A stretch of 22,354 nt of DNA from Rotaria magnacalcarata (GCA_965140935.1 CBCSLL010001906.1:1-22354), one strand, 5' to 3'. Positions 1-22,354 are shown, counted from the stretch's first letter. A program made the numbers and translations. Notes: generated by a model not told the origin, from the sequence alone.

Positions 1-230
1 TGTGAAATAAGAACTGATACGCTTTTCGTTGAGATTCAGCGATATACAGATTATGTCTCTTGTACTCGACTCAATGATTCTTACGATCATGAGTAAGCCG
101 ATTTCCCTATTGAATGGAATGATCGGGAGTCTTTAGAATTCATCTATGTAATGATTCTATAATGTTCCTATTGATGTTACGACATTATAGTCGAGAAATA
201 CGGTGATATTCATGGTGATTCAAGAGCCGA

Positions 231-407
231 TGGAATCACACAGAATCAATGGAATCACACGGAATCACGTAGAATCAATGGAATCACGTAGAATCAATGG
301 AATCACGTAGAATCAATGGAATCAACAGAATCACATAGAATCAACAGAATCACATAGAATCAACAGAATCACATAGAATCAGTAGAATCACGGAATCACG
401 GAATCAG
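231..407. repeat. Satellite-like tandem array built on a GAATCA core: the 19-bp unit GGAATCACGTAGAATCAAT x3, then AGAATCACATAGAATCAAC x3, with degenerate copies at both ends.
   Basis: Direct reading shows GAATCA recurring every 8-10 bp and two 19-bp higher-order units, each in three tandem copies. Confidence 0.8.
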
Positions 408-514
408 CTTTTTCCCCCTTGGGATGAGGTCAGATTGAGAGGATATCACAGTCATCCGTCAAACTCAATTTGTTGCGAATATTTATTCTATCAATATAGA
501 GCTGCCGACACACG

Positions 515-522
515 TATAAATA
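515..522 (+). promoter_or_regulatory. Candidate TATA box (TATAAATA) about 125 bp upstream of the ATG at 647.
   Basis: TATAAATA motif lies in the 5' flank of the pentapeptide-repeat ORF; the call rests on position alone. Confidence 0.2.
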
Positions 523-646
523 ACTGGTTCTTCTTACATTTTTTGTATGTTCGAACGAATCACAACACAATATAGATTTTAGATATTATCACCCTTGAAT
601 TTATTTAATACGTGGCATTTTTCGTGCTCTCATCTTTCAACAAATT

Positions 647-1642
647 ATGGATGACAGTTCATTTGATTTCAAACGAGAAAATTCAATCGTGTCATCATCT
701 GTGGCACAAACGTCATCTGATGTGGTGACTCGTAAGAAATCAAAGCCAATTAAATGTATGAATATATTCAAGCTTGCACTCGCTGCATTGCCAACTATTG
801 TTTTTGGAGTGTTTACGATTGTCTCCACGTTACAACAGGATGCTGCGGCTAGGGCGGCACGTGACCAAGGTCAAGGACAAGCCGACGAAACGAATCGAAG
901 AATTCTTTTCAAAGAATATATGGATGATATGAGAGATCTTCTTTTGGATGAAAATTTTGAACAAAATATTAACAAGTCTCTTCTACAAATTCGCGTTCAA
1001 ACATTAACAGTTCTAAGAAATCTTGATCCTATCCGTAAACGTGACGTGTTTCTTTTTTTGTATGAAAGTCGTCTGATTCGACACGATATCACACCGAGAA
1101 TTGATATACGTGGGGCGGATTTTAGTGGAATAAAGCTTGTGCAATCATCGACACAAGTCTGCGATCTTCCCTTTCTTTATTTACCGGGAGTAATCGCAGA
1201 AAATGCCACATTCGATGGTTGTACTCTCACATTTGCAGTGTTTGAGAGTGCGTCAATGGTTGGTTCTAAATTTCTGTTGAACGATATTGCACTTACGAAT
1301 TTTCAGAATACCAATTTGAATAAAGCAACATTTCGTGACAACCAAATGTATGAAGCAAAGTTTACGGGCGCTGATCTTAGTCAATCATTCATTGGTGATG
1401 GAGTTTATCAGAATGTGGATTTCACAAATGTTGATTTGTATCAAAGCGTTATTGGAAATTCCTTATTGAATCCACCACCATTTATCGGCTTGAAGCCAGT
1501 AATTTTGCTCAATACTCGCTTACCGGATGGCACGTTCAGTATTATTGATTCACAGAATTTGCTTATGCATGGTCGAGCAGAGACAGAAGTTAGTTTTGTC
1601 AAATATCGCGTTTTGGAGTGTTTTTCATTTCGTTTTTTGTAG
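647..1642 (+). CDS. Intronless 331-aa protein with an N-terminal signal-anchor/TM helix (IFKLALAALPTIVFGVFTIVSTL) and a C-terminal pentapeptide-repeat domain.
   Basis: Uninterrupted ORF from ATG 647 to TAG 1642. Residues ~165-290 show a strict 5-residue periodicity with a central F/L (NATFD GCTLT FAVFE SASMV GSKFL LNDIA LTNFQ NTNLN KATFR ... GADLS QSFIG ... NVDFT NVDLY), typical of the A(D/N)LXX pentapeptide-repeat family. A hydrophobic stretch at aa 40-62 follows a basic RKKSKPIK motif. Confidence 0.55.
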   Translation: MDDSSFDFKRENSIVSSSVAQTSSDVVTRKKSKPIKCMNIFKLALAALPTIVFGVFTIVSTLQQDAAARAARDQGQGQADETNRRILFKEYMDDMRDLLLDENFEQNINKSLLQIRVQTLTVLRNLDPIRKRDVFLFLYESRLIRHDITPRIDIRGADFSGIKLVQSSTQVCDLPFLYLPGVIAENATFDGCTLTFAVFESASMVGSKFLLNDIALTNFQNTNLNKATFRDNQMYEAKFTGADLSQSFIGDGVYQNVDFTNVDLYQSVIGNSLLNPPPFIGLKPVILLNTRLPDGTFSIIDSQNLLMHGRAETEVSFVKYRVLECFSFRFL

Positions 1643-4600
1643 TGTCATCTCAATGTCACGCCATATTGGAAAGAAGTCGTCACTACTGAACCACTAAATA
1701 TTATTCATTTTCAAGCAAGCCTACCAGTGAATATGTCTAAAGTCGAAGACGATTGCTTTTTCAAAATAGATAAAGACATGACCTACTATCAATTTTTGTC
1801 TGTTCAAAACTTCTCTCATTTGATCGATTTAAAACTAGCTATGTTCAATTTACTGGGATGGTTCGGATTGAAAAATCCAAATGACAAAGATTCGTTAACG
1901 ACGACAGTACACTTTTCACAAAATAAAAATTCATTTAATTTTGGAAGTTCAGTATTTAGTAAGTCGTTGCTGGTAAATCTTTCATGATTCACTATTGTTA
2001 TTTTGCTTGTATTTTAAGTTCATGTGAAAAATTTGACATCGTCATTCCATCAACATTCATTGGTTAATATGATCCCACCAATGACAAGATTTATAGCAGT
2101 ATCACTGGGTTGTAATACAGTTGGTACCAACGACCAATTTTGTCTCTTTGATCAAATAACATTATCAGTTTTTAGAAAGATCTCGTAAAGATGATAAGGG
2201 ATTTTTTTGGTAAATACGCATTACGACGCGAATATGTCAATTTTATGTATAACATATTTTTTGAAAACAATAACAATTGAATTGTATCTGCAGAAAGGAG
2301 TTGTCTTTATCGAAATATGTAAACTCATCCTCACAATTTTTGAGAAAATGTTGACATTAACCGGAGAATATACATGCCATTCTCACTCATTAAATACTCA
2401 TTCGAATTATTTGATGTGTACCACCCTGAAAGTAGGTTGTAATCACATAAGGTTTGGCTTATGTTTAAAAGCAATCAGGAAAGAAACATTTAATTAAAGA
2501 GCCTGTTTTTAGCTTTTTCATATTAAGGAGAGAATAGTGCACTAGTTAACCAAAAAGCGGAACAACATAAGACAGAAGTCGAGCATTCGGATGAAGAGCA
2601 ATATTAGGCACCCATTTATCAACAACATATTTTCTTGTCCAGAAATAAATTTTTTCAATAAAGTTGTCAACCAATAAACTGAATAATATTATCGGTATAG
2701 TTTAAGTTTTCGAAATTCATTGTTGATATTGGTTGAGATCGATTGTGGGTGATATCTGATGGCGGTAGAGTTCCACGGGTTGACCGAGGGGTTATAACTC
2801 AGGATAGGAGTTGACCAGCTGTGGGCACTCATCTATTTGAAAGTATCGAGGTTTCTATAGTGTTCTTCTAGGTGCTGCTTCTAAGCACTCTCTAACGATT
2901 GATAGATAGCAGACGATAATCAGTAGGACGATAAAAATAGAAACCATATTGAAAATGTAAACCAATCTCGGAAAATCATCTATTGGCATCGGTAGAGTGG
3001 TCATTGCTATTTGTTCTCTTGGTGATGTAGCTTCGAAGAATATAGCACAATAGTAATTAGATAGTCACATTGATACACCAAGTAGAAAATTGAGGCATTG
3101 CTTTGAAAATAATGTCAATTTATTCACATGTGTATTATAACGTACATAGGTATATGATTATAGATTTATTTCCACATAGTCTAATGATAAAGAGTAATCA
3201 ACTCAATAGAGAATTGGCAAGCAGATAACTAAGAGGTGCTATCTTGTGTCAACTAAGAAATGTGACATTATATTACCTTTTTTGTTTTGATAATCCGATA
3301 AAAATAGGATGAAATCTCGATCTGTTTGCATAATATTTTCTATCGTATTTTAAATCACAAAGTCATATACTCAAGCCAAATATTATTCGTCTATCTTGTT
3401 TCGTTGACTTGTCTTTAAGTGCTACTCGTTCTTGGAACGATATGAAGTTTTTCAAAAGTATATTCTCTCGCCATTGTTATATAACAACGATAAACAACAT
3501 AAGAACAATTCACACTGATAGCCTCTTTTCAAGCTCAAGTGTGATTGAGAGACAGAGTTGATAGTGGAGATAAACATATTATTATTGTATTGTTTTCAAG
3601 GGACGAATGTGACAAGTCTTTGGTGAAATAGCATACTTAGAATTATACTCGCAATAGAGTTGATATTAATCAAATGGACTGTCGGGATTATTTGGTTTAA
3701 GTGTTTTATTAGTGCCAAACATCCACGCGTTAGTTTTGTTTTCACATACACTGATTTGTTGGTGCTCAGGATTAAATTATTTCGCTATGTCAAACTATAA
3801 GATGAATCCATAGCCTTGTATTGGATCTCCTGCTGGATTGGCACTAAACTCAACAAACAAGAATGTTACTACAGAAAGCTGAGAAACATTTTCTACATTC
3901 GTTGATAGCGAGTTTGACAGATATTCGTCGTCTTGAGTGTGTGGAAGTAATCAACATCGGCATGCACATCTTTCTATTGTGAATACGATTCCACAGAAGA
4001 CAAGATTTCTGTTGGATGCGCTTTCTGTAAAACATGAACTACTCTTATTCATAAAAGCAATCCTGTGATATAATCAATAAAACGAATAAAATTCTAATTT
4101 ATTTTCCACTTGCGACAAAAAAAGAAAGCTCTTTTAATAACTCTTGTGGATAAATTTGTTTTTTGTCGAATCGTTCATAATTCCTTCATACGTTGTTCAC
4201 CAATTTTTGACTTGGGTCGCTTTACACGATGTTTTATTCAGCTATTAATCTGAAAAATGACGTCATGAACAGTAATTGTTCCAGAAAATCTCATAAATCT
4301 GTCATCAGAATTTGTATGCAAAATTACATTACAACTTCGGTTTGTACATCGCCAAAATTTTAGTTTTCTTTCGATTAAAATTTAAAAATTGTAAATTATA
4401 ACCATTAACGATTAACACAAATTTTCCTTTATTCGAGTATGTTTTTGTAATAGTTAGTTTAGTTGGACTTGGTTGTCAAAATGAATTTTCAGGTGATTGA
4501 GATGGCGATAAACATTCAGTTTCATCAATAGCTGTCAACTTATTAGATCCCATCAAAAATGTCTTTTTACAATTACGGAAAAATATTACGCAAAACAACG

Positions 4601-4740
4601 AATGACATTTAAACGATATATTTTCTGGTCTTTATTGAATCATTGATACGGTAGTCGTGTCCTCTACAATAGGCAATAAAAATATGCACCGATATATTTC
4701 TTTCTTGAAGGGGTCATCTATATTTCACTAACACATAGTT

Positions 4741-4860
4741 CAACAACTAAAATTAAAGAATAAGGAACATTTTTTCAAGGACAAAATATCGGAGGAAATT
4801 TTTTCTGAGGACGAAAAACCAGGGACATTTCTGAAAGGACAATTTTTTGGGGACATTTTA
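4741..4860. repeat. Degenerate tandem repeat with a ~20-30 bp period; units have the form (A)GGAC(A/G)...TTTT.
   Basis: Repeated GGACAAAATATCGGAGGAAATTTTTTCTG / AGGACGAAAAACCAGGGACATTTCTGA / AAGGACAATTTTTTGGGGACATTTTAGACC. Confidence 0.5.
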
Positions 4861-5503
4861 GACCGTATTCGTGTGGCACTACGATTGATTTGAATTTTCA
4901 TTCAATATGATCAGAGTTACGTCAGTTTGAAATAATCTGTGATAAATTTTCCATGAATGACCTTTTTTTTCTTGTTTAAAAGAAAAAGTCCCATTTATCT
5001 TCCAGCAGTTTGCTTGCAATGCTCGGTTAAAAAAATGCTTTACAACACTACTGCCGTCTATTAAAAAAAACTTCCTACTCTATATTTTTCAGAATAACTT
5101 CTGGATTGATCTATGAAAGTAAAACCGATAAGTGTTTGTTTTTGTCGGTTGCATATTTGGTTGAAATTTTCTTCGTTTCTTATTTAGATGTAATTTTTAG
5201 ATAATTTATCGGAATGAGTAATTCTGAGGTTTCATTTTCAAACGCAATTCTATCCACTGCCGAATCAAACCTCCAAAATATTTGCCTATTGCTGCACTGC
5301 AAATAACCTTGAAAGCAAACAACTTAAAAAAATAAAAGCTTGTGCAAGAACACCAAGACGTAAGAGAGAGAGTGAAACATAGATTTTACCGCGATATTTG
5401 TTTTTCTTTTTTTCCTTTCTCTAACATGGGGCAAACTTGCACAATGCTTTGAAAAATACTTAATCATTCAACATGCAATACCATAGTCTTTATATTTTCA
5501 GTT

Positions 5504-5579: not shown

Positions 5580-5767
5580 ATGAGTAAAGCAACAACTACG
5601 GATAAGAAAAGTGATTCCGGTCCACTTTATCGAATTCCTCCTTATTTTTATATTCATGTTTTGGATCAAAATACAAATGTTACGAGACTTGAAATTGGTC
5701 CCAAAACATTTATTAAACAAGACAATGAAACAGTCACCATCGGACCAGAAAAAATGATTACAGTACC
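5580..5767 (+). CDS. MVP: MVP1 exon 1 ([10 protein letters not shown]...EKMITVP, ends in phase 2).
   Basis: First ATG lies in frame with the ORF 5541..5804. Donor GTACGT is at 5768. The junction restores TVP|PRHYCV, identical to the human MVP motif. Confidence 0.65.
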
Positions 5768-8650
5768 GTACGTTGATAATTGTTATTCTAAGAAAAGACG
5801 ATGAAAGAAAGTAAAAATTTGGATGTTTTTTTAGGCCCCGTCATTACTGTGTTATTGAATCGCCTGTAGTACGCAATGATGCTGGCGAAGTTATTTTCGA
5901 TAAAAATGGACAAGCCAAACTTGTTCATGCTGACTTGGAAATTCGGCTTTCACAACCTGATCAATCACCTTTTCCTCTCTATCCCGGTGAAATTCTTCGT
6001 CAAGTATAAAGAAACATTCAAAATTTTCTATTGAGAATAAAATAAAACTACTTTTTATGTTTGTTCTATTTTAAAGCCTGTTACTCCATTAAAAGTTGTT
6101 CCTGCTAATTCAGCATTACGCTTAAAGGCTGTCCTAGATTTTCAAGATGAAGCAGCAGATGAACAACGTCGGGCTGGAGATGAATGGTTATATGAAGGAC
6201 CAGCTACTTATATTCCTCGTAAAGAAGTTAGCGTTGAAGAACAAATTCGTGCTACAGTTATCTCGTCTAATCAAGCTATAAGGCTTTGCGCAAAAAAGGA
6301 AATCGTTGATCGTACAGGCCAACGACGTGTTACTGGTGAAGAATGGTTAATTAAAAAGACCGGTGCATATTTACCACTTGCATATGTAAGTGCAAATCTC
6401 GTCGGTATGCGAAATACTAATCTTGTTATTTTTAGGAAACTGTGGTTTCAGTAGAAAATGCTTATGTATTAACCGATAAAAAGGCTCTTCATCTTTGTGC
6501 ATTAAAAACTTTTACAGATAATTTCGGTAAAGAACGTATGAACGGTGAAGAATGGCTTGTAACACTTGCTGACACTGAAACACATATTCTTAGTGTCTAT
6601 GAACAATTAGTTTCTGTTGTTAATGTAGTAACATTAACATCACGTCAATATTGTGTTATAATCGATCCAGTTGCTGACGGAAAACCACAATTAGGGAAAA
6701 AAGCAAGTTTTTATCTCAATGAAATCAGAGAGATTAATTATGTTGATTTCTTTCTTTCGTAGAAACTTGTTGTCGGTGAAAAATCATTCTTTCTTCAACC
6801 CGGTGAAAAACTTCAAAATGGTATTCAAGATGTTTTTATCTTAGGTGAAGATGAAGGTGTTATTCTAAAATGTATCGAAGCATTTAAAGATACACAAGCT
6901 AATGTTAATCGAAATCCCGGCGATCGTTGGATGATTCGTGGTCCAACGTAAGATATTTAATGTCTCTATGAAAGGTCTAAATTAATATTATTCTTGTAAA
7001 TTTTAGTGAATATATACCTCCAACACAAGTTGAAGTTGTGACACGTCGAAAAGCTTTGCCATTAGATGCCAATGAAGGTATCTATGTTCGTGATATCAAA
7101 ACTGGTTGTGTCCGTGCCGTCATTGGCGAAACTTATATGTTAACACAAGATGAAGAATTATGGCAAAAAGAATTGCCTAAGAAAGTTGAAGAATTATTAT
7201 CTCGTGATGCTTTAAGTGAACGAAATGTTCTCACGCGAAGTCAAACATCAGATAAAAATCAATCTCAACAACAAGCAGCAACAACAACAACAAGTTCAAA
7301 CGTAAATGTTGCCAAACGTGATAAATCAAAACTAGTTACCTATCGTGTACCACACAATGCCGCTGTACAAATTTATGATTATAAAGCTAAGAAAGCACGT
7401 ATTATATTCGGCCCTGAACTTGTTATGCTTGGACCCGATGAACATTTTACATTACTTTCATTGAGTGGTAGTGTACCAAAAAAACCAAATCAAATTCAAT
7501 CACTTTGCTTACTTCTTGGACCAGACTTTTTTACTGATGTCATTGTTATTGAAACAGCTGATCATGCTCGTCTTTCACTTCAACTTTCATACAATTGGCA
7601 TTTTGAAATATCAGATATTGAAGACGACAAAGAAGCATCCAAACTGTTTTCTGTACCAGATTTTGTTGGTGATGCAGCTAAAGCTATAGCGTCACGTGTT
7701 CGTGGTGCTGTTGCTGGTACACAATTTGATGATTTTCATAAGAATTCAGCTCAAATTATTCGTACGTCTGTATTTGGTCTTGATGCAAATCAAAAAATAC
7801 GAGAAAACTTTACTTTTCCACAAAACAATCTTGTCATTACATCGATTGATATTCAAAGTGTTGAACCTGTGGATCAACGAACACGAGATGCTCTTCAGAA
7901 GAGTGTTCAATTAGCTATTGAAGTAAGATAAAAGACTATCGATTGAATTGTGATGATTAATTTCCGTGTATGTCTACATTTTAGATTACAACAAATTCAC
8001 AAGAAGCTGCAGCTAAGCATGAAGCTTCGCGTCGAGAACAAGAAGCAAAAGGTTTACTAGAACGTCAACGTATTAAAGATGATGCTGAAGCTGAAGAGGT
8101 TCGAAAACAACTTCTCCTGTTACAAGCTGAATCATCGGCTGTTGAAGTCACAGGGCAAGCTAAAGCCGAAGCACAAAGTCGAGCTGAATCTGCTCTCATT
8201 GAAGGACGAGCATCTGTTGAACAAGGTATAAATATTTTATTTTTCCAATGGAATTCAATAAGTGAATTTTTCTTTTGTTTAGCTCGTCTCAGGGCTGACG
8301 CTGCACGAATTGAAGCCGAAGCTGAAATATCACGCCTACAATTGGCACGCGAAGCTGAAATTAACTATTTACGTGAACAGAATGAATTAGAAATTACTAA
8401 AAAGGCTGAAATGTCACGTATTGAAACCGACAAATTCAAATTACAAGTTGAATCAATCGGTGCATCAACAATACAAGCCATTGCAACTTCAGGTCCAGAT
8501 ACACAAGTTAAACTTTTACAAGCGCTCGGTCTTCAGTCCATGTTGGTTACTGATGGTCATTCACCTATCAATCTAATGGGCTTTGGACAAGGACTTTTAG
8601 GTGGTTTAAATGCAAATACAATTAGCAATGCGGGTGGAGCACCTAATTAA
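5580..8650 (+). CDS. MVP: Major vault protein gene, paralog 1 (gene span). Exon model: join(5580..5767,5835..6003,6077..6385,6436..6702,6763..6947,7007..7922,7985..8225,8283..8650), 2643 nt, 880 aa.
   Basis: The translation matches MVP hallmarks along its whole length. N-terminus: [37 protein letters not shown]. Vault repeats: [46 protein letters not shown]. Shoulder/cap: [84 protein letters not shown] coiled-coil tail follows. All splice junctions keep the frame. Introns are GT-AG except one probable GC-AG, and the gene ends at TAA 8648-8650. Confidence 0.85.
5835..6003 (+). CDS. MVP: MVP1 exon 2 ([56 protein letters not shown]).
   Basis: Acceptor tttttttag|G is at 5834/5835; donor GTATAA is at 6004. 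Confidence 0.6.
6077..6385 (+). CDS. MVP: MVP1 exon 3 (PVTPLKVV...[17 protein letters not shown]).
   Basis: Acceptor ttttaaag|C is at 6076/6077; donor GTAAGT is at 6386. Confidence 0.65.
6436..6702 (+). CDS. MVP: MVP1 exon 4 ([20 protein letters not shown]...[13 protein letters not shown]).
   Basis: Acceptor atttttag|G is at 6435/6436. The exon ends before GCAAGT at 6703. The ORF-track tail [19 protein letters not shown] is intron read-through. Confidence 0.55.
6763..6947 (+). CDS. MVP: MVP1 exon 5 ([30 protein letters not shown]...[13 protein letters not shown], ends in phase 2).
   Basis: Acceptor ttcgtag|A is at 6762/6763; donor GTAAGA is at 6948. The frame continues from exon 4 only if the 60-nt GC-AG intron is removed. 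Confidence 0.55.
7007..7922 (+). CDS. MVP: MVP1 exon 6 ([30 protein letters not shown] ... SVQLAIE), 916 nt.
   Basis: Acceptor aattttag|T is at 7006/7007; donor GTAAGA is at 7923. The ORF-track M at 7038 is a GTG artefact. The exon carries a Q/T-rich low-complexity insert ([24 protein letters not shown]). Confidence 0.7.
7985..8225 (+). CDS. MVP: MVP1 exon 7 ([80 protein letters not shown], ends in phase 1).
   Basis: Acceptor cattttag|A is at 7984/7985; donor GT is at 8226-8227. Confidence 0.65.
8283..8650 (+). CDS. MVP: MVP1 exon 8 ([103 protein letters not shown]...GAPN*).
   Basis: Acceptor tttgtttag|C is at 8282/8283; stop TAA is at 8648-8650. The exon overlaps ORF 8342..8650, whose M is a TTG artefact. 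Confidence 0.65.
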
Positions 8651-10442: not shown

Positions 10443-10448
10443 TTTATT
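10443..10448 (-). promoter_or_regulatory. AATAAA polyadenylation signal overlapping the MVP2 stop codon (cAATAAAa). A second AATAAA lies about 100 nt downstream at ~10338-10343 (-).
   Basis: The minus-strand sequence reads ...CCACAAAGACAATAAAACGATTG. Confidence 0.3.
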
Positions 10449-10557
10449 GTCTTTGTGGTGTACCAACTAAATCAACGGCAGTATTGAAAAGATTAATTGG
10501 ACTGCGTCCATCAGTAATCAAAGTTGATTTAATACCAAGAGCTTGAAGAAGTTTAAC
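10444..10557 (-). CDS. MVP: MVP2 exon 14 ([37 protein letters not shown]).
   Basis: Acceptor tttag|G (ag = 10559,10558); stop TAA at 10446-10444. Confidence 0.6.
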
Positions 10558-13500
10558 CTAAATAATGAGAGAGGAAAAAACAAGCAGTTAGTAAAGTGTA
10601 GCACGAATTCTTATTAAGATAAAATCTTACTTGATTATCGGGTCCGCTAGTAGCAATAGCTTGAATAGTTTTTGGACCGATAGCAGCAACATGCTCTTTG
10701 AATTCTGAAATTTCAATATCGGCTAATCGTTTTGCTTTTTCTATTTCTAAATTAGCTGTCGACGTTGAATAATGTAATTCAAGTTGGCGTGCTTGCGTTA
10801 AACGTATAAGTTCAGCATCAGATTCAATCTTTGAAGCTTGTGCACGAAGTGTAGCTGAAAAAGAGAAAAGAGAACATATAATATATATATATATCGATAC
10901 AGATGTTCAATATGCGACATACCTTGATCAACAGCAGCTGCACCTTCGATTTTAGCTGCTTCTGCTCTTGATTGAGCTTCAGCGCGTGATTGACCGGTGG
11001 TTTCAACAGCAGATGACAGTGCTTGAAGTTCTAATAATTTTCGTCGTTCCTTTTCAGCTATAAAAATGAAAAGGTTTACGATTCCAATTTCACATAGAAT
11101 AAAATTCTACCTTCTGCTTCATCAGCAATTTTCTGTCGTTCTAAATGACCCTTTGCTTCTTGTTCTGTGCGTGAAGCTAAATGTCTATAGGAAAAACGAA
11201 GCAAATAAAAATTTGAAGTTCATTTTTTGTTAAACATACTTCGCTTGGGCTTCTTGTGAATTTGTTGTTATCTAAAATGGAGACATGCACGGAAATTAAT
11301 CATCACAATTCGATCGATAATCTTTTATCTTACTTCAATAGCTAATTGAACACTCTTCTGAAGAGCATCTCGTGTTCGTTGATCCACTGGTTCAACACTT
11401 TGAATATCAATCGATGTCAGAACCAAACTATTTTGCGGGAATACTAGTCTTTTTTTCACATGTTTATTTTCATCAAGACCGAATACTGAGCTTCGAATGA
11501 TTTTCGCAGAGTTCTTATGGAAATCATCGAATGAAATACCAGCAACAGTACCACGAATTTTAGCTGCTACAGCTTTACAAAAATCACCAATAAAATCTGG
11601 TACTGAAAAAAGTTTTGTAACTTCTTTTTGATCATTGGAATCATTAACCTAAAATAATAAAAAAAAAACAAAGATTTGCTTTCTTTTCTTTGTAAACTCT
11701 TATAATTCTTACCTCAAAATGCCAGTTATATGAAAGTCTGAGTGAAAGACGAGCATGATCACTTGATTCGATTGTTACAATATCACTTGAAAATTCGGGT
11801 CCCATTAGAAGACAAATAGCTCGAATCTTATTTGGTACTTTGGGTTTTTCACCGGATAAATTCAATATTGTGAATTGCTCATCTGGTCCGAGCATAACAA
11901 GTTCAGGGCCAAATACAATGCGTGCTTTTTTAGATTTGAAGTCATAAATTTGTACACAAGCATTGTGTGGAACTCGATAGGCAACTACTTTCGATTTATC
12001 TCTTGGTGGTATAGCTGTTTTTTGTGCTGATTTATCATCAAAACATCGAGCATCTTGATTGAGAAGTAGTTCAACTTGGGCAGGTAATTCTTTCTCCCAA
12101 AGTTCTTCATTTTCAGTCAATAAATATGTAGTGCCAATGACTGATCGAACTTTACCAGTTTTAACATCTCGAACATAAATACCTTCATTGACATCTAATG
12201 GTGTAGCTCTACGTCGGAGTACTACTTCCGATTCGACAGCTGGAATATAGTCTTTAGGTCCTCGGATCATCCAACGATCACCAGGATTACGTAGGACCGT
12301 CTATAAAAACAATCAATCGGATACAATTGATAAATAAAAATTTCACAAAACCTATTAACTTACTCCATCTTCTTTAAACGATTCAGTACAACGAAGAATG
12401 AGTCCTTCATCGTCTTCAAGAACATAGACATCCTGAATACCTTTAGCTAATTTTTCACCGGGTTGAAGAAAGAATGTTGTTTCTCCCTTTAGAAAATCGA
12501 AAGATTTAAAATTTAAAATTCATATGATTCTAATTTATCATACTTTAACAAGCTTTTTCTTTCCAAGTTGCGGTTTACCATCTGAACCAACAGGATCAAT
12601 AATAACAGCGTATTGACGAGAATTTAATACAGTTACTGCTACAACACCAACAACCTAAATATTTTATTCATTATTTTTCATCTACGAAATAAACATATTT
12701 AATTATATCTACCTCTTCAAAAACATCTGGAATATATGTTTCAGCATCACGGGCATATACAAGCCATTCTTCTCCATTGAGACGTTTATGTTTGAATGAA
12801 TCAATAAATGTGCCCAATGCTCGTAAATGAAGAGCTTTCTGGAAGAAGAAAAAAGGGCAATAAAATAAATATATCATGAAAAAAGACGACTGATTCCTAA
12901 GAACACATACTTTGTCAGTTAGTACATAGGCTTTAACTGTTGAAACAACTTCTTCGTAAGCTAATGGTAAGTATGAGCCAATAGTACGATTAAGCCATTC
13001 TTCGCCTGTTTCGCGTGCAATTCCATCGCGGTCAACCATCTCTTTTTTCGCACGTAAACGAACAGCTTCGTTTGGTTTAAGAATAACAGCTTTTATTTGT
13101 TCTTCAACGCTAACTTCTTTACGTGGAAGATAAGTTCCTAGAAATAAATTTATTCGAAAATGTTTACTATTAAAAAATTTAGAATATTTTTGTTTTGCTA
13201 TTTTACCTGGTCCACAGAAGAGAAATTCATCTCCAGCACGTATCTGTTGATCATTCTCATCGGTAAAATCCAAAACCGCACGAAGGCGTAATGCACAGTT
13301 AGGCTCAATAACTTTCAATGGTGTTACATTCTGTTTGAGTATTTCACCAGGATAGAGTGGAAATGGTTCTTGAGCAAATCGAATATCAACATCCGAATGT
13401 AACAACTTAACTTGACCATTAGAATCAATAACAACTTTCGCATTTTTATCACGAACAGCTGGATTTTCAACAACGCAATAATGACGAGGACTAGATAATT

Positions 13501-13790
13501 AGTTATACATAGAATTTTTTAATGAAATCAAAGAAAGAAAAACAACTTCAACATACGGAATTATTATCATGCGTTCTGGTCCAACGAGGACTTTTTCATG
13601 ATCTTGTTTAACAAATGTAAGTGGGCCAACTTCAAGTCGGCTTACATTTTTATTTTGATCGAGCACATGTAGATAGTAGAAAGGAGGAACTCGGTAAACT
13701 AAAATTCAACGAAGAAAAAACAACGAGCATTGAATCTTAATGCAAAAGAATTAAAATATTCATACCACCGGTAACTTTTGAATCAGCCAT
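10444..13790 (-). CDS. MVP: Major vault protein gene, paralog 2 (gene span, minus strand). Exon model: complement(join(10444..10557,10631..10854,10923..11057,11111..11184,11240..11271,11334..11648,11713..12300,12364..12486,12544..12654,12713..12838,12911..13137,13207..13490,13557..13698,13766..13790)), 2520 nt, 839 aa.
   Basis: The spliced translation is [35 protein letters not shown] ... [11 protein letters not shown] ... [18 protein letters not shown] ... [11 protein letters not shown] ... ETGEEWL ... [19 protein letters not shown] ... [16 protein letters not shown] ... [20 protein letters not shown] ... [14 protein letters not shown] ... [12 protein letters not shown] ... [19 protein letters not shown] ... 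[30 protein letters not shown] ... [24 protein letters not shown] ... *. It is collinear with paralog 1 and with vertebrate MVP. All 13 introns are GT-AG of 53-73 nt, all junctions preserve the frame, and the total length is divisible by 3. Confidence 0.85.
10631..10854 (-). CDS. MVP: MVP2 exon 13 ([75 protein letters not shown]).
   Basis: Acceptor ttttcag (ag = 10856,10855); donor GTAAGA at 10630. Confidence 0.6.
10876..10894. repeat. (TA)n microsatellite inside an MVP2 intron.
   Basis: ATATAATATATATATATAT read directly. Confidence 0.7.
10923..11057 (-). CDS. MVP: MVP2 exon 12 ([45 protein letters not shown]).
   Basis: Acceptor tttatag (ag = 11059,11058); donor GTATGT at 10922. The intron contains a (TA)n microsatellite. 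Confidence 0.6.
11111..11184 (-). CDS. MVP: MVP2 exon 11 ([25 protein letters not shown]).
   Basis: Acceptor cctatag (ag = 11186,11185); donor GTAGAA at 11110. Confidence 0.55.
11240..11271 (-). CDS. MVP: MVP2 exon 10, a 32-nt micro-exon ([10 protein letters not shown] + first 2 nt of K).
   Basis: Acceptor cattttag (ag = 11273,11272); donor GTATGT at 11239. Its 5' portion lies in the block that is near-identical to MVP1. Confidence 0.55.
11334..11648 (-). CDS. MVP: MVP2 exon 9 ([105 protein letters not shown]).
   Basis: Acceptor tattttag (ag = 11650,11649); donor GTAAGA at 11333. Confidence 0.65.
11713..12300 (-). CDS. MVP: MVP2 exon 8 ([45 protein letters not shown] ... SYNWHFE), 588 nt.
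   Basis: The exon lies within ORF 11644..12270(-), whose tail [10 protein letters not shown]... is intron read-through. Acceptor ttttatag (ag = 12302,12301); donor GTAAGA at 11712. Confidence 0.7.
12364..12486 (-). CDS. MVP: MVP2 exon 7 ([41 protein letters not shown]).
   Basis: Acceptor ttctaaag (ag = 12488,12487); donor GTAAGT at 12363. Confidence 0.6.
12544..12654 (-). CDS. MVP: MVP2 exon 6 ([37 protein letters not shown]).
   Basis: Acceptor atatttag (ag = 12656,12655); donor GTATGA at 12543. Confidence 0.6.
12713..12838 (-). CDS. MVP: MVP2 exon 5 ([42 protein letters not shown]).
   Basis: Acceptor tcttccag (ag = 12840,12839); donor GTAGAT at 12712. Confidence 0.6.
12911..13137 (-). CDS. 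MVP: MVP2 exon 4 ([76 protein letters not shown]).
   Basis: Acceptor tttctag (ag = 13139,13138); donor GTATGT at 12910. Confidence 0.6.
13207..13490 (-). CDS. MVP: MVP2 exon 3 ([95 protein letters not shown]).
   Basis: Acceptor ttatctag (ag = 13492,13491); donor GTAAAA at 13206. The exon overlaps ORF 12671..13405(-). Confidence 0.6.
13557..13698 (-). CDS. MVP: MVP2 exon 2 ([48 protein letters not shown]).
   Basis: Acceptor gaattttag (ag = 13700,13699); donor GTATGT at 13556. Confidence 0.6.
13766..13790 (-). CDS. MVP: MVP2 exon 1 (MADSKVTG + 1 nt).
   Basis: ATG at 13790-13788; donor GTATGA at 13765. An alternative donor 3 nt upstream would give the same phase. Confidence 0.45.
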
Positions 13791-14963: not shown

Positions 14964-15165
14964 TTAAACATATCGCCATGTAATCATAGTCGGACTATCA
15001 ACATTTACGATTCTAGGTTTTTTCTTTACATCTCTTCCTTCGTTGTATAGAATCACACCAAACATAACAATAAATGTTCCTGCACCACTTAAGAATGTCA
15101 CCGGATTATGAAATATAATAATTGATATCCATATCATTAATGCACGCTTTATAGTATTCGCAACA
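14964..15165 (-). CDS. SLC35-like exon 5 (S VANTIKRALMIWISIIIFHNPVTFLSGAGTFIVMFGVILYNEGRDVKKKPRIVNVDSPTMITWRYV*).
   Basis: The exon matches ORF 14964..15197(-). Acceptor ctactag (ag = 15167,15166). Confidence 0.65.
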
Positions 15166-16645
15166 CTAGTAGAAAAAAAAACGAAAATTGTGAGCAATAC
15201 GACGAGTCATCGTTTTTGTTTTACCTGTGTGTTATCGGCGATATGTAAGCCATGATAGCAAAGGCAGCAACGGCTTGTATATGATAAAAAAATCCATTGA
15301 AAATATATAAAAGAGCTAATGTTTTCGAAGTTAATGATAATGCTAACGGAATATCAACATAATAAAGAAGTAAAGGTAATTGAAAAATACATGCTAAAAG
15401 ACTAGCCCAAAATTGTAATTCAATAGCTGTATAACGATAATGTTCACCGCTTATTAATAATTTAGAATAAACATTTTGTAAACTGAAATAAGAAGAAAAT
15501 TCGAAACGTGGAAAAAATCAGTGAAATTTCATAGCTGTTCGATTTATCAGATTAAGTTAAATCAATATTACTCTCGTGATTAATGATTTAGATAACTAGA
15601 AACTTGCAATGTTTCGTCTGTCACGATTTGAGATATGCGAGACCGGAATTAAACAGTATAGTTAATTATTCTATGGTTCAAATCGAATTGTATTAATCAG
15701 AGTATAACCCAAGGGAGACAAACGGTCGCATGCTAAATATGGAAAACTCTAGAAATGATGAGCTTTGCTTTTAACCTTTACTACAAATTAATGATGGAAC
15801 CAGACAAAAAAATCTATTGTGACCTAAGCTTTCACTTGAAGAATTATCTTCGCTTATAGTCTAAGTTCTGAAGCAGGCTCCATCGCTGGTACTATTTCTA
15901 CCAAATAACAGTATAATCATCTTACCAATCAAATATATTTGTCCCTAATGCACACAAAAATCCGCTCAAATTAAAGCTTAATTCAAATGAGCTACATAGA
16001 CATAAGCCAAGTGTTATTGGTATCATTGAAAATTTAGTCCAATGAGCTAAAATACAAGAGAATAGTTATTCTTAAAAACATATTTAAAAAAAATGCTTCT
16101 TACTTGTTCTTTCTCCAAGTATAATTCGACTAATAATAACCGTAAATAACGGAGAAGAAGATTTTATTGTTGCTACAAATGATACAGCTATATATTTCAA
16201 AGCAATTAAACCTAAAACAATAGTCACAGAACGAAATGCGCCGATTAATATCATATCACGATATACGTTTTTCATCACCGTTGGATTTCTATTTAATGGA
16301 CTATAAAATTTATTTATAAATAGTAAATGTATATAACCACTAATTATGGAAATAACAAGTTGAATTGTGCCTTAAATTGCAAAAAGAAATTCGAAATTTT
16401 AGTTGAAAACGGAACATAGTGGATGTTTCTATTTCAATACCTAATGAAAAAGTATCGCCATCCAAATGACTTAATATGTATTTATTTGAAAATAATGTTG
16501 CAGCCGATGAAATATACCATACAATAAGGATTATTATTGCCATTGAATGATATAAACCTCGGTGAACATCAAGACCAAATTTGTCCGTTGAATGTAAAAC
16601 ATCGGTTCGATCTGGAGCAACGTCAGATAAACTTGTTAACGGCAT
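14964..16645 (-). CDS. SLC35/TPT-family (SLC35E-like) nucleotide-sugar/triose-phosphate transporter-type membrane protein, gene span. Exon model: complement(join(14964..15165,15225..15482,15926..16046,16104..16370,16441..16645)), 1053 nt, 350 aa.
   Basis: The spliced translation is MPLTSLSDVAPDRTD...AIIILIVWYISSAATLFSNKYILSHLDGDTFSL|GTIQLVISIISGY...VATIKSSSPLFTVIISRIILGERTS|THWTKFSMIPITLGLCLCSSFELSFNLSGFLCALGTNIFD|C LQNVYSKLLISGEHYRYTAIELQFWASLLACIFQLPLL...AFAIMAYISPITHS|VANTIKRALMIWISIIIFHNPVTFLSGAGTFIVMFGVILYN...*. It carries the family motifs: NKYIL in TM1, IKSSxPxFTVI, LQNVYSKLL, ELQFW, SPxTHSVANTxKR, and a C-terminal NPVT...G...LY. Ten hydrophobic helices are predicted. The gene has 4 GT-AG introns. 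Confidence 0.7.
15225..15482 (-). CDS. SLC35-like exon 4 (C LQNVYSKLLISGEHYRYTAIELQFWASLLACIFQLPLLLYYVDIPLALSLTSKTLALLYIFNGFFYHIQAVAAFAIMAYISPITH).
   Basis: Acceptor tatttcag (ag = 15484,15483); donor GTAAAA at 15224. Confidence 0.6.
15926..16046 (-). CDS. SLC35-like exon 3 (T HWTKFSMIPITLGLCLCSSFELSFNLSGFLCALGTNIFD).
   Basis: Acceptor tattttag (ag = 16048,16047); donor GTAAGA at 15925. Confidence 0.6.
16104..16370 (-). CDS. SLC35-like exon 2 (G TIQLVISIISGYIHLLFINKFYSPLNRNPTVMKNVYRDMILIGAFRSVTIVLGLIALKYIAVSFVATIKSSSPLFTVIISRIILGERT).
   Basis: The exon contains ORF 16084..16278(-). Acceptor aatttaag (ag = 16372,16371); donor GTAAGA at 16103. Confidence 0.6.
16441..16645 (-). CDS. SLC35-like exon 1 (MPLTSLSDVAPDRTDVLHSTDKFGLDVHRGLYHSMAIIILIVWYISSAATLFSNKYILSHLDGDTFSL).
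   Basis: The exon matches the start of ORF 16340..16645(-). Donor GTATTG at 16440. Confidence 0.6.
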
Positions 16646-18139: not shown

Positions 18140-19438
18140 TTTCAGAACAATGCTACCAACAAGTCAGGATTAAACTAAGAGTTTATCACCACTTGACTTG
18201 ACTTGGAAGCGAAGTTGACCGAAATCGACAATTACGAATACATATCTTTAATACTGATGAAGATCACAAAAGCAACTCAACAGTCTGAACTGTGATACAA
18301 TCCTAAAAACGTCAAAACCGACACCGATTTCAATGCGTATAAAAAAATTGAAATTGTATTCTTAACTTTCTGACGGAGGAAACAGTGAACCTTTTCTAAT
18401 ATAACCTATTTTAGATGAAATTCTCATTAATTTTAGAACATGTTTTCTCGTATTATTATGGAAATAATACTCCTGAAATCTTTAATGAGGGATGATATTG
18501 TTTGATGTCCTTCACATAGAATATTAACTGTTTAGTAGCCTAGTAGGAAGAGAAATGAATTAAATCCCTGTGGTTAATTTTTATTAAAACAAGACGACAA
18601 CAACAATGTTTATTTTCATTTAGATTACGTTCAATGTTGATATTTGTTAAAGTCACACGTTAACCACTAATCTATTCGTTTACAGCTCATTTAAAAAGAA
18701 TAAAATGTTCAATTGTCATTGTCCTCTACGAATATGTTGATAAACTTGGATAGAGTTTTTGCAGCAATGCATTTTATTAAAGCTACCTTAGGAATTATAC
18801 TACGACGATTCGAATCGCGCTTCGTACTGAACTATGGTAAACTATTGCATACGAAGTCTAAGCGTTTTATCAAGCATATGATTATGTTTACATACGAGAA
18901 TAATTGATGTCGTAAATTTTTCTTCGAGGTAGAGATTTTTAAACGCTTATTTGAATTGTTCTCATATATACCAGATTGTTCACATAATCGAGCTCAGATT
19001 AAAGATAGCAAGTCATTATTATTGTTTTTTCAATCACCGAGTTTCTAATTTTCTATTGATAAGTTGCATGGTGAACTAAGCATATTACTAATCTATACTG
19101 CTTTCGATTCATAATGAAGGACGTCAATGGGAAAAGATTATCATTATTCTATTCTTCAATGTCATGGTGTTTTATTTATTACAAACACATACAATTTTCA
19201 ATTGTAGTTGAATGAAAAATTTAGGATGAGGCAATCATTAAGAGAAATGAATTCTTAGGTATAAAAATCTGATACTCTTATTTGTTTTGACATCAAAAAT
19301 CAAGATACCCATGTCCATTTAAATTAATTTTTCATTGCTGCGATAGAGGAAAGATTTCTCTATCCGCTTAGGTTTGACCAAAAGTGCTGCAATTAAAAAA
19401 ACAAATTAAAGAAAAAGAGAAAGTTCGAGTATATATAT

Positions 19439-19912
19439 CAAGTTGAATTCTTTCTAACAATTTGTTGAGAGTTTTTTAGCTCTTCTTCGAAAAAACTTTC
19501 AGGTACCTTGGATGCCACATGAACTAATCATATTTCATTTATTCAATTAGTTAAAATACGTTCACTGGAATTGGTTAGCCAAAAATGACATAGTATCAGG
19601 CCTGGCGAATATGACGGATAAAACACTAAACAAAGTTTTCGTTAAAATCTGTCTTTATGAACAATAGTCGTTGGCGATTCATCTTCAATAAGCCAGCTAG
19701 CATCAGATGACACATGATTAGCCTATCTAAAATAAATCCATATCCCATCGCTAGTAGTGCTAGAACGCAACTGCCATGATCAAACGAAATTTCACTAAAT
19801 TTTTAAACCAATGAAATATGATTGGTCCATGTGGTATCCAAGGTGCCTAAAAGTTTTTTCGAAGAAGAGCTCAAACAACCGTTTAGCAAATTGTTAGAAA
19901 GGATTCAACTTG
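19439..19912. mobile_element. MITE-like element of 474 bp with ~100-bp terminal inverted repeats at ~88% identity (CAAGTTGAATTCTTTCTAACAATTTG... / ...CAAATTGTTAGAAAGGATTCAACTTG). It has no coding capacity and is flanked on both sides by (TA)n, so a TA target-site duplication is plausible, consistent with a Tc1/mariner-derived origin.
   Basis: The reverse complement of 19811-19912 aligns with 19439-19540 at ~88 of 101 positions. The termini are exact (CAAGTTGAAT). The flanks read TATATATAT|CAAG and CTTG|ATATATAT. Confidence 0.55.
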
Positions 19913-19946
19913 ATATATATGTTGAAGGGAAAATTAAAATTTTAAT

Positions 19947-20114
19947 CTCTCCTAGAGAAATTTGAAATCTTCCTCTTTCCTCTATATTTCCTATGAAGAA
20001 GCGAGCATTCTAACTTCACCTAGAGGAGATTACAATTTTTCTCTTTCCTGTGAATTTTATACGAAGAAGCGAGCGTTTTAATTTTCTCTATAGGGGAATT
20101 TTAAATTCTCCTAG
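19947..20114. repeat. Tandem repeat of a 67-bp unit, 2.5 copies at ~75% identity between copies: CTCTCCTAGAGAAATTTGAAATCTTCCTCTTTCCTCTATATTTCCTATGAAGAAGCGAGCATTCTAA / CTTCACCTAGAGGAGATTACAATTTTTCTCTTTCCTGTGAATTTTATACGAAGAAGCGAGCGTTTTAA / partial.
   Basis: Direct reading. The partial third copy ends in GGGGAATTTTAAATTCTCCTAG, which is also the left arm of an inverted repeat. Confidence 0.55.
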
Positions 20115-20418
20115 CAAACGATAAATGTATAATCTTTTACATGTTTGTTGTATTTCCTTGAAAACTATTGTATTATCTATCAAAATAATATAAAACACTT
20201 TCAACAATGTATAGTTTACATAAAAAACATTAGAAACAACTTAAAGACAACTGCAAAAATTATTCGATATTTTCACAGGCATGTTTTTTTTTTTGGTGAT
20301 TTTTCTCTCCATTTCAGTCAGTAGAGAGCGCGCGGTCACGTCGCTATTTAATTTTAATTTGGTAAGATACAGAAGAAGATTATACATTTATTGCTTACTA
20401 GGAGAATTTAAAATTCCC
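20094..20418. repeat. Perfect 21-bp inverted repeat (GGGAATTTTAAATTCTCCTAG ... CTAGGAGAATTTAAAATTCCC) bracketing 283 bp; possibly a second small MITE. The interior contains a T11 run and a GC-rich core (GAGAGCGCGCGGTCACGTCGC).
   Basis: The reverse complement of 20398-20418 equals 20094-20114 exactly. Confidence 0.4.
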
Positions 20419-22354
20419 TTCCAACATATAAAATCATGGCAACTATCATCAACATTAATAAAATAAAACTTTCTCTTTCTCTTTATTTGTTTTTTTTAAA
20501 TTGCAGAACTTTTGGTCAGACCTAAGTATGTGTAGGGCCTCTTGATCATGGAATTTGTTTTTATGTGTTGACTTGAAATAGGTAACATGAGGAGGTATAT
20601 ATACAAATGGAGTCACATCTTTCAGTATTAGCAGAAAGTAACCAAATATTATTTAAGTAGATTCTAGATTCCGTTCTGTAAATATCTGAATGTGAGTTAC
20701 CAAGTATTTTGCTAATATTACATTTTAGATCCCATTAACAAATAATTTGATATAAATTCTGTATCTAGAGATGGTAATTTTTACTTTTAAAGTTAAGGCT
20801 ATACTACCACTTCTATCCGAATATTGAGTGAGCAGATGAAATTAAAGACATGATGAATAGTGAGCAAGAAAAGCTCGGTTTGGAATCTCTTATCGGGAAT
20901 TCTTCTGTTTCTAATTACAATCTTTCTTGGATTAAGTTGAACCTGAAATCAAGTACATTATGAGTGGAAGAGCAGGGTGTTATCGCTAAACAGATTTATA
21001 CATACAAATGACCAGCCATGAATGGCGCCTCGGACTAGTATCGACGAGCGCTTTAGGTTGAGGTGACCAACAAGAAAACTTGCTGTGATGTAGATCTATT
21101 GAAAGTTCAGAAAGTGAACAGAACTCTGGAAAAACCAACAAAGATTATTGAGCAAACTCTGCGATCAGTTATTCTACAATCGTAGCAATATCACTTAGAA
21201 TTTAGATTCGACCAAATTAAAAGTAGATTTACATGAAATAAAATTTGCTTTTCTCTCGGTATGTGACTTTACCGGTTCACAATTGTAAACCGGTAGAAGT
21301 ATTTGGCTATATTCAGCTAAACTATCTAATTCCATGGTCATTTTACGTGGGAATGTAATTCATAGCTAAGGAGCGAATCGGAAGCCTCAGCATCTTTTAT
21401 TGGGTACTTCGAATTGATTATAGACTTGGAATGAGATTTATTAGCATTAGAATTGAATATTCAATAATTCCAGTCGTAGTAATATCTGATCTCAAAAATA
21501 ACCATATTGTTAATATGTAATGGAACGGAGTATACTATCAGAAATGCATCCAAGAACTTTAAATAGCAAAACGATTTTGTGATTTCTATCAATTTTGTAT
21601 GAAAATTAGAAAAAAACCCTTCATTGTCGATAATGACACGAGGGTTAAGATCATATCACTCAATTTGTTAACTAATATGATTTGTGGAGTTTAAGTTTAG
21701 ACGAACAGGATGTTTTCGTAACCACGTTTCTTAGAGAAAAGGTGTTTGAATTTGATATTTGACAACGATCGACACAAAATACCCTTTTTTATACATATTT
21801 GGACAATACTCAGTTTGTTGTTAGTTACTCATCGGAAATCTTTTAATTATAAATGAGTTACGTTTGTGAAATAGTCGAAAAATGAATCGATTGCATTGAT
21901 TGTAGTCTACGAGAATTTTATTGATGAAGTATTACAAAAAAAAACACGGGTCTACTAGAAAAATTCTGCGATTATTAATCTAACATTTATATTTGAATTA
22001 ATGGCGTCAATCTGCTAGTTTTTTTTAACGGAGAGATGTATTCGAATTGAATCAAGTAAGTGTTAGGTTTCTTTATCTATTTAAACATACACACTTGCAT
22101 GCATATATTTGCATCAGAGAACGAGAACGAACCGTACCAACTTAAACAAAATGTAGATAAACCGAACGGAGCTCGAATTAGAAAAACACAGTTCGATTTT
22201 TATGTGTAATCTATGAGTGCGTGTAGGCTAGTTTGAGTTTTAGGTTCACAGCTCTCATGGGTGACTGTTTTTCTTCGTTTTATATCGAGCTTATTGAAAT
22301 TTTTTCTGGACGTTGTTCATGCTTCATTATTTGGGATTGCTTGGGGATACTTGC

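Follow-up and report, generated by a model that had tools for sequence, protein, structure and literature searches.

A probable short gene-conversion tract between ancient inverted major vault protein genes of a bdelloid rotifer

The MVP Gene Pair and Its Near-Identical Tract

We have analysed a 22,354-nt stretch of DNA from the bdelloid Rotaria magnacalcarata (GCA_965140935.1, CBCSLL010001906.1:1-22354), referred to below as the window, which consists of AT-rich eukaryotic DNA (∼33% G + C) with numerous short introns of 50–73 nt and holds two convergent, tail-to-tail genes for the major vault protein (MVP), MVP1 on the plus strand and MVP2 on the minus strand. The two genes share a 169-nt tract of near-identity, which runs over an exon end, an intron and most of a 32-nt micro-exon of MVP2, and which has probably been produced by gene conversion.

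Models of both genes have been built with a purpose-written protein-guided spliced aligner and yield products of 838 and 839 aa, which can be aligned over their full length to annotated MVPs (65–86% identity). The long open reading frame at 7038–7928 has been matched to solved MVP structures with E = 2e-115 (PDB chains, residues 376–664), and the orthologous loci carry the Pfam families Vault, Vault_3/4 and MVP_shoulder (PF01505, PF17794-6, PF11978). Judged by this evidence, both genes of the window can be assigned to MVP at full length, with predicted vault repeats, shoulder and cap-helix. The closest named proteins are those of Adineta steineri (89%, a fragment), Rotaria socialis (86%, which is also the amino-acid identity between MVP2 and the R. 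socialis MVP), Adineta vaga (84%) and Didymodactylos carnosus (76–77%); protein searches have found no database protein at least 90% identical to the MVPs of the window, and the coding nucleotides of each sampled bdelloid differ from the window by at least 15%.

Regarding the overall divergence of the pair, genomic DNA of MVP1 and MVP2 is ∼60% identical, coding sites differ by ∼33%, and introns outside the tract are unalignable. The global gene alignment contains one spike of near-identity only, in which MVP1 7839–8007 and MVP2 11417–11249 are collinear and gap-free with 163 of 169 positions identical, and beside which mismatches amount to 25 of 60 nt upstream and 4 of 9 nt downstream (Table 1). 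The two copies lie 3.2 kb apart in inverted orientation on the same contig, and the tract coincides with the most conserved MVP peptide, where the shoulder domain adjoins the cap-helix domain.

The original prediction, an earlier reading of this DNA, had listed six differences between the copies, and the base-level alignment has returned exactly these in position and identity (MVP1/MVP2: T at 7868 against A at 11388, then 7936 C/T, 7944 T/C, 7969 T/C, 7976 A/C and 7987 T/A). Two of them are synonymous (7868, CCT/CCA, Pro; 7987, ATT/ATA, Ile) and the other four intronic. The spliced models have also reproduced the proposed composition of the tract, in which the last 84 nt of exon 9 and the first 23 nt of exon 10 enclose the 62-nt intron, as well as the description of exon 10 as a 32-nt micro-exon whose downstream intron is absent from MVP1, in which the exon at 7985–8225 reads through uninterrupted at the equivalent of the MVP2 exon 10/11 boundary. 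Identity has not been found to extend uniformly across exon 9, as it collapses 84 nt before the end of this exon.

Table 1. Coordinates of the MVP genes, the exons and introns around the tract, and the two tract copies in the window.
Feature	Position	Strand	Description
MVP1 gene, ATG to stop	5580..8650	+	Spliced model with 8–9 coding exons; copy nearer the single Brachionus MVP
MVP1 partner copy of the tract	7839..8007	+	Found as inverted repeat and in the global alignment
MVP1 intron homologous to MVP2 intron 9	7923..7984	+	62 nt, 58/62 identical
MVP2 gene, ATG to stop	10444..13790	-	Spliced model with 14 coding exons, ATG at 13790 and stop at 10444; divergent paralog
MVP2 exon 9	11334..11648	-	315 nt; homogenised in its last 84 nt only
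MVP2 copy of the tract	11249..11417	-	Last 84 nt of exon 9, 62-nt intron, first 23 nt of exon 10
MVP2 intron 9	11272..11333	-	62 nt, phase 0, GTAAGA..TTTTAG; position common to the MVP1 intron at 7923–7984
MVP2 exon 10 (micro-exon)	11240..11271	-	32 nt; 10 residues and the first two bases of a Lys codon
MVP2-specific intron 10	11185..11239	-	55 nt, phase 2, GTATGT...CTATAG
MVP2 exon 11	11111..11184	-	Spliced model

Further along the MVP1 model, the intron at 6703–6762 (+) is of the GC-AG type with the donor GCAAGT, and admitting GT donors only forces an in-frame stop into the model. A 60-nt "intron" called at 7216–7275 is probably coding, as it stays in frame and as an MVP1 mRNA contig of a related bdelloid (L006) retains the corresponding variable stretch, at which the aligner has likewise called a 72-nt "intron".

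Statistical Evaluation of the Tract

Chance is excluded as the cause of the tract. When the 789 differences were permuted over the 2460 aligned coding positions, the observed run was never matched in 20000 trials (P < 5e-5), and the longest run with at most two mismatches measures 107 nt, compared with a maximum of 57 nt in the permutations. Ordinary protein constraint has been addressed through codons that specify the same amino acid in both paralogs, of which only 3 of 36 differ in the tract vs. 207 of 506 outside (Fisher P = 5e-5), and through runs of identical synonymous codons (P = 6e-4). The strongest single fact is the identity of 0.94 between the introns embedded in the tract, as all 96 pairs of an MVP1 with an MVP2 intron have a median of 0.59 and the next-best pair reaches 0.68.

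Comparison Among Bdelloid Genomes

Loci for comparison have been retrieved from metagenomic contigs, namely L001 (a contig of 3.3 Mb), L002, L003, L007 and others, and from the named genomes of R. socialis (L083/L084), A. vaga (L085, chromosome-level, CP075497.1), the early-branching D. carnosus (L088) and the monogonont Brachionus calyciflorus (L089). In addition, L006 (MVP1) and L086 (MVP2) are metatranscriptome contigs from one sample of a related bdelloid, in which both MVP copies are thus expressed. The tail-to-tail pair with a gene for a TPT transporter upstream of MVP2 is common to all bdelloid genomes that carry both copies, including A. vaga, R. socialis and D. carnosus, and the duplication is therefore older than the bdelloid crown group. 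In Brachionus only one MVP gene is present, which is MVP1-like and almost free of introns.

Several loci depart from this arrangement. L002, which comes from the same sample as L001, contains a Sad1_UNC gene, an MVP1-type gene and TPT without MVP2, and is probably an ohnologous (homoeologous) copy of the locus in which the second paralog has been lost or was never present. The MVP2 of L003 (12384–15453, minus strand) has seven in-frame stops in its best spliced model, lacks the shared intron and appears to be a pseudogene; an O-FucT gene lies between the two MVP copies of this contig. L008 (MVP1-type) and L015 (MVP2-type) each stand alone, with no partner within ∼7 kb downstream, and have several otherwise rare tract variants in common, differing at 6 of 108 tract sites vs. 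∼30% in the flanks. If both were to come from one species, conversion would have taken place even though the copies no longer lie side by side.

In a codon alignment of all copies, paralogs within a genome have been found closer to each other than orthologs of different genomes only in the tract window. Parsimony-informative sites, counted per species pair in tract and flanks, group the tract by species and the flanks by paralog: for the window against L001, L007, R. socialis and A. vaga, the tract sites favour the species grouping 6:0, 7:0, 4:0 and 5:0, whereas the flanks favour the paralog grouping by ∼330:40 (Fisher P = 3.6e-5 to 3e-6). Among the six bdelloid genomes, the tract usually gives 3–8 vs. 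0–2 for species and the flanks ∼320 vs. 40 for paralog, with P between 2e-7 and 3e-3 for the species pairs without the window; three non-significant comparisons of the L003 pseudogene, with the window, R. socialis and A. vaga, are excluded from both P ranges. A sliding scan has returned species:paralog counts of 27:2 and 29:2 at codons ∼650–680 and the opposite nearly everywhere else. In the metatranscriptome contigs, MVP1 of L006 and MVP2 of L086 differ at only 2 of 108 tract sites vs. ∼30% in the flanks.

Tract Boundaries and the Micro-Exon

The original prediction had placed the end of the tract almost exactly at a paralog-specific splice site, which is right in substance, with a nuance. 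The last shared base is 11249 and the MVP2 donor follows 9 nt further on (11240/11239), while the edge itself lies at the first paralog-diagnostic codon, located between tract edge and donor, which throughout the Adineta/Rotaria-like lineages specifies Ala in the MVP1 copies and Gln in the MVP2 copies. This 3′ edge falls at the same codon in the window, A. vaga, R. socialis and L001. The 5′ edge shifts by a few to ∼35 nt between lineages and abuts a stretch in which the paralogs differ by ∼40%. The barrier on the 3′ side could consist of the heterology introduced by the 55-nt intron, of selection on paralog-specific residues, or of both.

Beyond the tract, a second conserved island has been located at codons ∼470–510 (7320–7454, plus strand, and 11866–12000, minus strand, in the window), where the copies of the window are 84% identical, i.e., at baseline (distance 0.158). 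In A. vaga, the paralog distance at this island (L085, alignment codon columns ∼489–513) drops to 0.05 with a perfect run of 75 nt, and the island there forms a separate, lineage-specific conversion tract, which fits the same local-identity rule as the main one. A 41-nt match of 95% between 6206–6246 and 13095–13135 has been rejected as a conversion tract, as it shows ordinary paralog grouping in the scan and reflects a conserved peptide only.

The micro-exon lies between canonical AG|...|GT boundaries, and the phase-0 and phase-2 introns on its two sides keep the reading frame. A. vaga, R. socialis, D. carnosus and the metagenomic loci L001 and L021 all have it together with both GT-AG introns, at the equivalent position and in the same phase, and the MVP2-specific downstream intron has been seen in all MVP2 copies examined but in none of the MVP1 copies. 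Two intron-free metatranscriptome contigs (L086/L087), with an uninterrupted frame of 841 codons and 86% amino-acid identity to MVP2 of the window, match its predicted splice product codon for codon across both junctions of the micro-exon (...LAIE|micro-exon|HLASR...), and the annotated proteins of R. socialis and D. carnosus contain the micro-exon. Inclusion of the micro-exon in the mRNA of the window is therewith predicted, with good indirect support from these contigs and proteins of related species.

The GenBank protein I4U23_029823 of A. vaga ("partial", 648 aa; L085 8001–10405) has ...SVQLAIE as its last residues, exactly where exon 9 ends. In the DNA of A. vaga (L085) the remaining exons are intact, including the 32-nt exon at 10463–10494, which suggests that the gene annotation failed at the micro-exon.

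Interpretation and Competing Explanations

We estimate a probability of about 0.9 that the tract is the MVP2 side of a short and fairly recent interlocus (non-allelic) gene conversion between ancient inverted MVP paralogs. The original prediction had proposed such a conversion tract, and this reading has been borne out inasmuch as neutral sites are homogenised only here and the phylogenetic signal flips from paralog to species.

The shared intron leads independently to the same result. Its best match is the paralog of the same genome in the window (0.94), L001 (0.79), R. socialis (0.76) and A. vaga (1.00), where a perfect run of 132 nt extends over exon, intron and exon, whereas the identity between introns of different lineages stays at background (median 0.62, at most 0.77). 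D. carnosus provides the unconverted baseline: its intron is present in both paralogs at the background of 0.63, the exonic parts contain 11 of 84 and 8 of 23 mismatches, and the sequence of the tract is therefore not intrinsically constrained. With full intron identity in A. vaga and background identity in D. carnosus, conversion has thus recurred independently across lineages, and such repeated homogenisation, at different times in different lineages, is what characterises concerted evolution through gene conversion.

If the tract had been homogenised only once, long ago, or if the local mutation rate were unusually low, in place of recent lineage-specific conversion, this would account for a paralog divergence of the exonic part that is reduced in all lineages (0.03–0.19) and for a 3′ edge that is the same everywhere. 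We regard this explanation as very improbable, since tract paralogs are closer within a genome than orthologs between genomes, informative sites group by species, and introns are specific for a lineage, yet common to the two paralogs of a genome, and of very different ages (100%, 94%, 79%, 76%, and background).

Purifying selection on a functional element over the exon end and the intron, such as a regulator of micro-exon splicing, an intronic small RNA (mirtron) or an RNA structure, has to be considered in view of the exonic part, which as the most conserved MVP peptide differs at only 4–18 of 108 nt between species, and of the mirtron-like size of the 62-nt intron. The intron sequence speaks strongly against it, being no more similar between species than the background given above, similar only at that level in D. 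carnosus despite its presence in both paralogs, and lost outright in L007 (from both paralogs), in MVP2 of L003, and in L005, L008 and L015. Moreover, MVP1 carries the same intron, though it has no micro-exon to regulate. Folding has revealed no hairpin in either copy of the intron on either strand (minimum free energies of −5.1 and −6.5 kcal/mol, z = +1.0 and +0.3 vs. shuffles) and no excess of RNA structure over the 169 nt (z = −0.3 to −0.8), and no Rfam family has matched at the gathering threshold anywhere in the window. A mirtron or structured intronic RNA has been rejected on these grounds, and we give the whole class of selected elements very little credence.

Reciprocal exchange, by a double crossover between the inverted copies or by successive inversions, is mechanistically possible at this locus, as the copies form inverted repeats on one chromosome, and a crossover in the tract would leave the 3.2-kb interval inverted and the 3′ ends of the two genes exchanged. 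In the six genomes with both copies, however, the N-terminal part of type 1 is still joined to the C-terminal part of type 1 and gene order is unchanged, with flanks at ∼320 vs. 40 on both sides, and no product of a single crossover (inversion) has been seen. A double crossover within 169 nt would be indistinguishable by sequence from conversion and is less parsimonious, so that exchange of this kind appears very unlikely beside a non-crossover conversion. An assembly or consensus artefact, in which reads of one paralog polished the other over ∼one short-read length in the most similar part of the pair, is the least credible explanation of all, given that six differences remain between the copies, that independent assemblies (L085, L083, L084, L001) display the same pattern with different sequences, and that the metatranscriptome contigs L006 and L086 reproduce it.

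Some observations weigh against the conversion reading or limit it. Over the 108 exonic sites, MVP1 of the window differs from MVP2 of the window at 3 positions and from MVP1 of R. socialis at 4, and an exon-only bootstrap supports the paralog of the own species as nearest neighbour with a value of 0.56; the exonic sites are too few, and the case for the window therefore rests heavily on the 62-nt intron. As to the direction of transfer, neither the comparison of the window's tract with MVP1 and MVP2 orthologs nor that of the introns has yielded diagnostic sites in the one haplotype at hand, from which non-reciprocity of the transfer cannot be shown either. The evidence does not separate mechanical from selective causes of the boundaries, and the transcripts that contain the micro-exon are not those of the window itself.

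A Possible Mechanism

For the conversion reading, a likely course of events can be inferred in which a break or gap in one copy is repaired by homologous recombination with the inverted paralog ∼3.2 kb away on the same chromosome as template, whereby ∼170 nt would be copied without crossover. Experimental studies reviewed in PMC3924818 show that conversion varies with local identity and with how long the perfectly identical stretches are, and that it falls steeply below ∼80% identity. With paralogs that are ∼67% identical, the island of the tract would be one of only two sites with enough identity for strand invasion; even in the unconverted D. carnosus, the tract region contains a perfect run of 23 nt, which only one other run between the paralogs exceeds. 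Each event would homogenise the embedded intron as well, creating a longer identical stretch and facilitating the next event, so that the hot spot could renew itself. On the 5′ side, extension may be stopped by the paralog-specific and highly diverged coding stretch, and on the 3′ side by the paralog-diagnostic codons and then, 9 nt on, by the 55-nt intron found in MVP2 only.

Extended over evolutionary time, this mechanism leads to a tentative picture, which we hold to be possible and rather less probable than its opposite, of a long-lived, self-renewing hot spot of ectopic recombination that has been active since before the split of Adineta and Rotaria, with a hard 3′ stop set by the MVP2-specific intron or by selection on paralog-specific residues of the cap-helix. 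In a stronger version, homogenisation may even be favoured because MVP1 and MVP2 co-assemble in one vault shell. If such a hot spot existed, ectopic repair in ancient asexuals could be followed through the MVP pair as a natural, clock-like reporter, and the tract ages (introns at 100%, 94%, 79%, 76%, and background) would gauge how frequently breaks are repaired from non-allelic templates in desiccation-tolerant lineages.

Relation to Known Systems

Interlocus gene conversion between linked paralogs has been surveyed in yeast, Caenorhabditis, Drosophila, and mammals (PMC3924818; for Caenorhabditis PMC3966223). The MVP tract resembles the surveyed cases as a non-reciprocal-looking patch of ∼170 nt with sharp edges between nearby paralogs of one chromosome, which homogenises synonymous sites and an intron, creates a local conflict of gene and species tree, and depends on identity. 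It differs from them in that the MVP paralogs are older than the bdelloid crown and differ by ∼33% of coding sites, well below the usual ∼80% identity, and in that the island has been converted anew and independently in several lineages with the same codon as its 3′ end.

Within bdelloid genomes, gene conversion has been described between allelic, homologous copies (PMC3464624; population data in PMC7749112). Both phenomena concern the same organisms and presumably the same break-repair machinery, which leads to patchy identity, but the copies are homologous and collinear in the allelic case and old tandem-inverted paralogs of one chromosome in that of MVP. For A. vaga, several radiation-induced MVP genes have been reported (PMC10809525), and like other MVP duplicates both copies of the window are predicted to be full-length, with vault repeats, shoulder and cap-helix. 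The literature search has turned up no earlier description of MVP paralogs that undergo conversion, nor any of the 32-nt exon.

The tract is a fresh instance of a well-known process, unsurprising to the specialist, and not a new kind of biological system. It stands out for paralogs that are very old and very diverged, for repeated conversion of one small island in several bdelloid genera, and for the fixed edge near a paralog-specific intron. The palindromes of the human Y chromosome, in which arm-to-arm conversion acts over tens of kilobases at >99.9% identity, likewise employ an inverted duplicate on the same chromosome as template and preserve gene order without crossover, whereas only 169 nt of the 3-kb MVP gene pair are homogenised.

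The value of the locus lies in a well-bounded ectopic conversion between very old paralogs, at a time when conversion and break repair in the ancient asexual genome of bdelloids are actively debated. Recurrence at one 170-nt island with one fixed edge constitutes a small natural experiment on where conversion starts and stops. The tract is at the same time a warning for MVP gene trees, for the dating of the duplication, and for the use of paralog-specific primers or probes in this region.

Other Features of the Window

A TPT transporter gene lies at ∼15009–16645 on the minus strand, upstream of MVP2. On the other side of the pair, A. vaga, R. socialis, L001, L002, and L003 have a Sad1_UNC gene next to MVP1; none has been detected upstream of MVP1 by tblastx in positions 1–5500 of the window, which suggests a local rearrangement or insertion.

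Between the 3′ ends of the MVP genes, an inverted repeat of ∼135 nt with ∼70% identity (9336–9463/10017–10143) contains sub-repeats of TCCGGAAAA and reaches an alignment score of 48 vs. 11.5 ± 2.2 for shuffles. It resembles the terminal inverted repeats of a small inserted element of ∼0.8 kb, of the MITE (miniature inverted-repeat transposable element) or foldback type, and for this reason its interpretation as a relic of the duplication has been rejected.

At 647–1642 (+), an intronless open reading frame of 331 aa encodes pentapeptide repeats (Pfam PF13599, E = 9e-15; PF00805). Horizontally acquired genes are common in bdelloids, and the frame is a candidate for such a gene, because a mostly bacterial domain is found here inside an intron-rich animal region. 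A tandem array with a period of ∼19 nt and units such as AGAATCAATGGAATCACGT in at least eight overlapping copies occupies 223–400. Near the opposite end of the window, at 19393–20499, nested inverted repeats (I7, I9, I10, I13) surround a 68-nt tandem duplication (19939–20074) and may represent another foldback-type mobile element.

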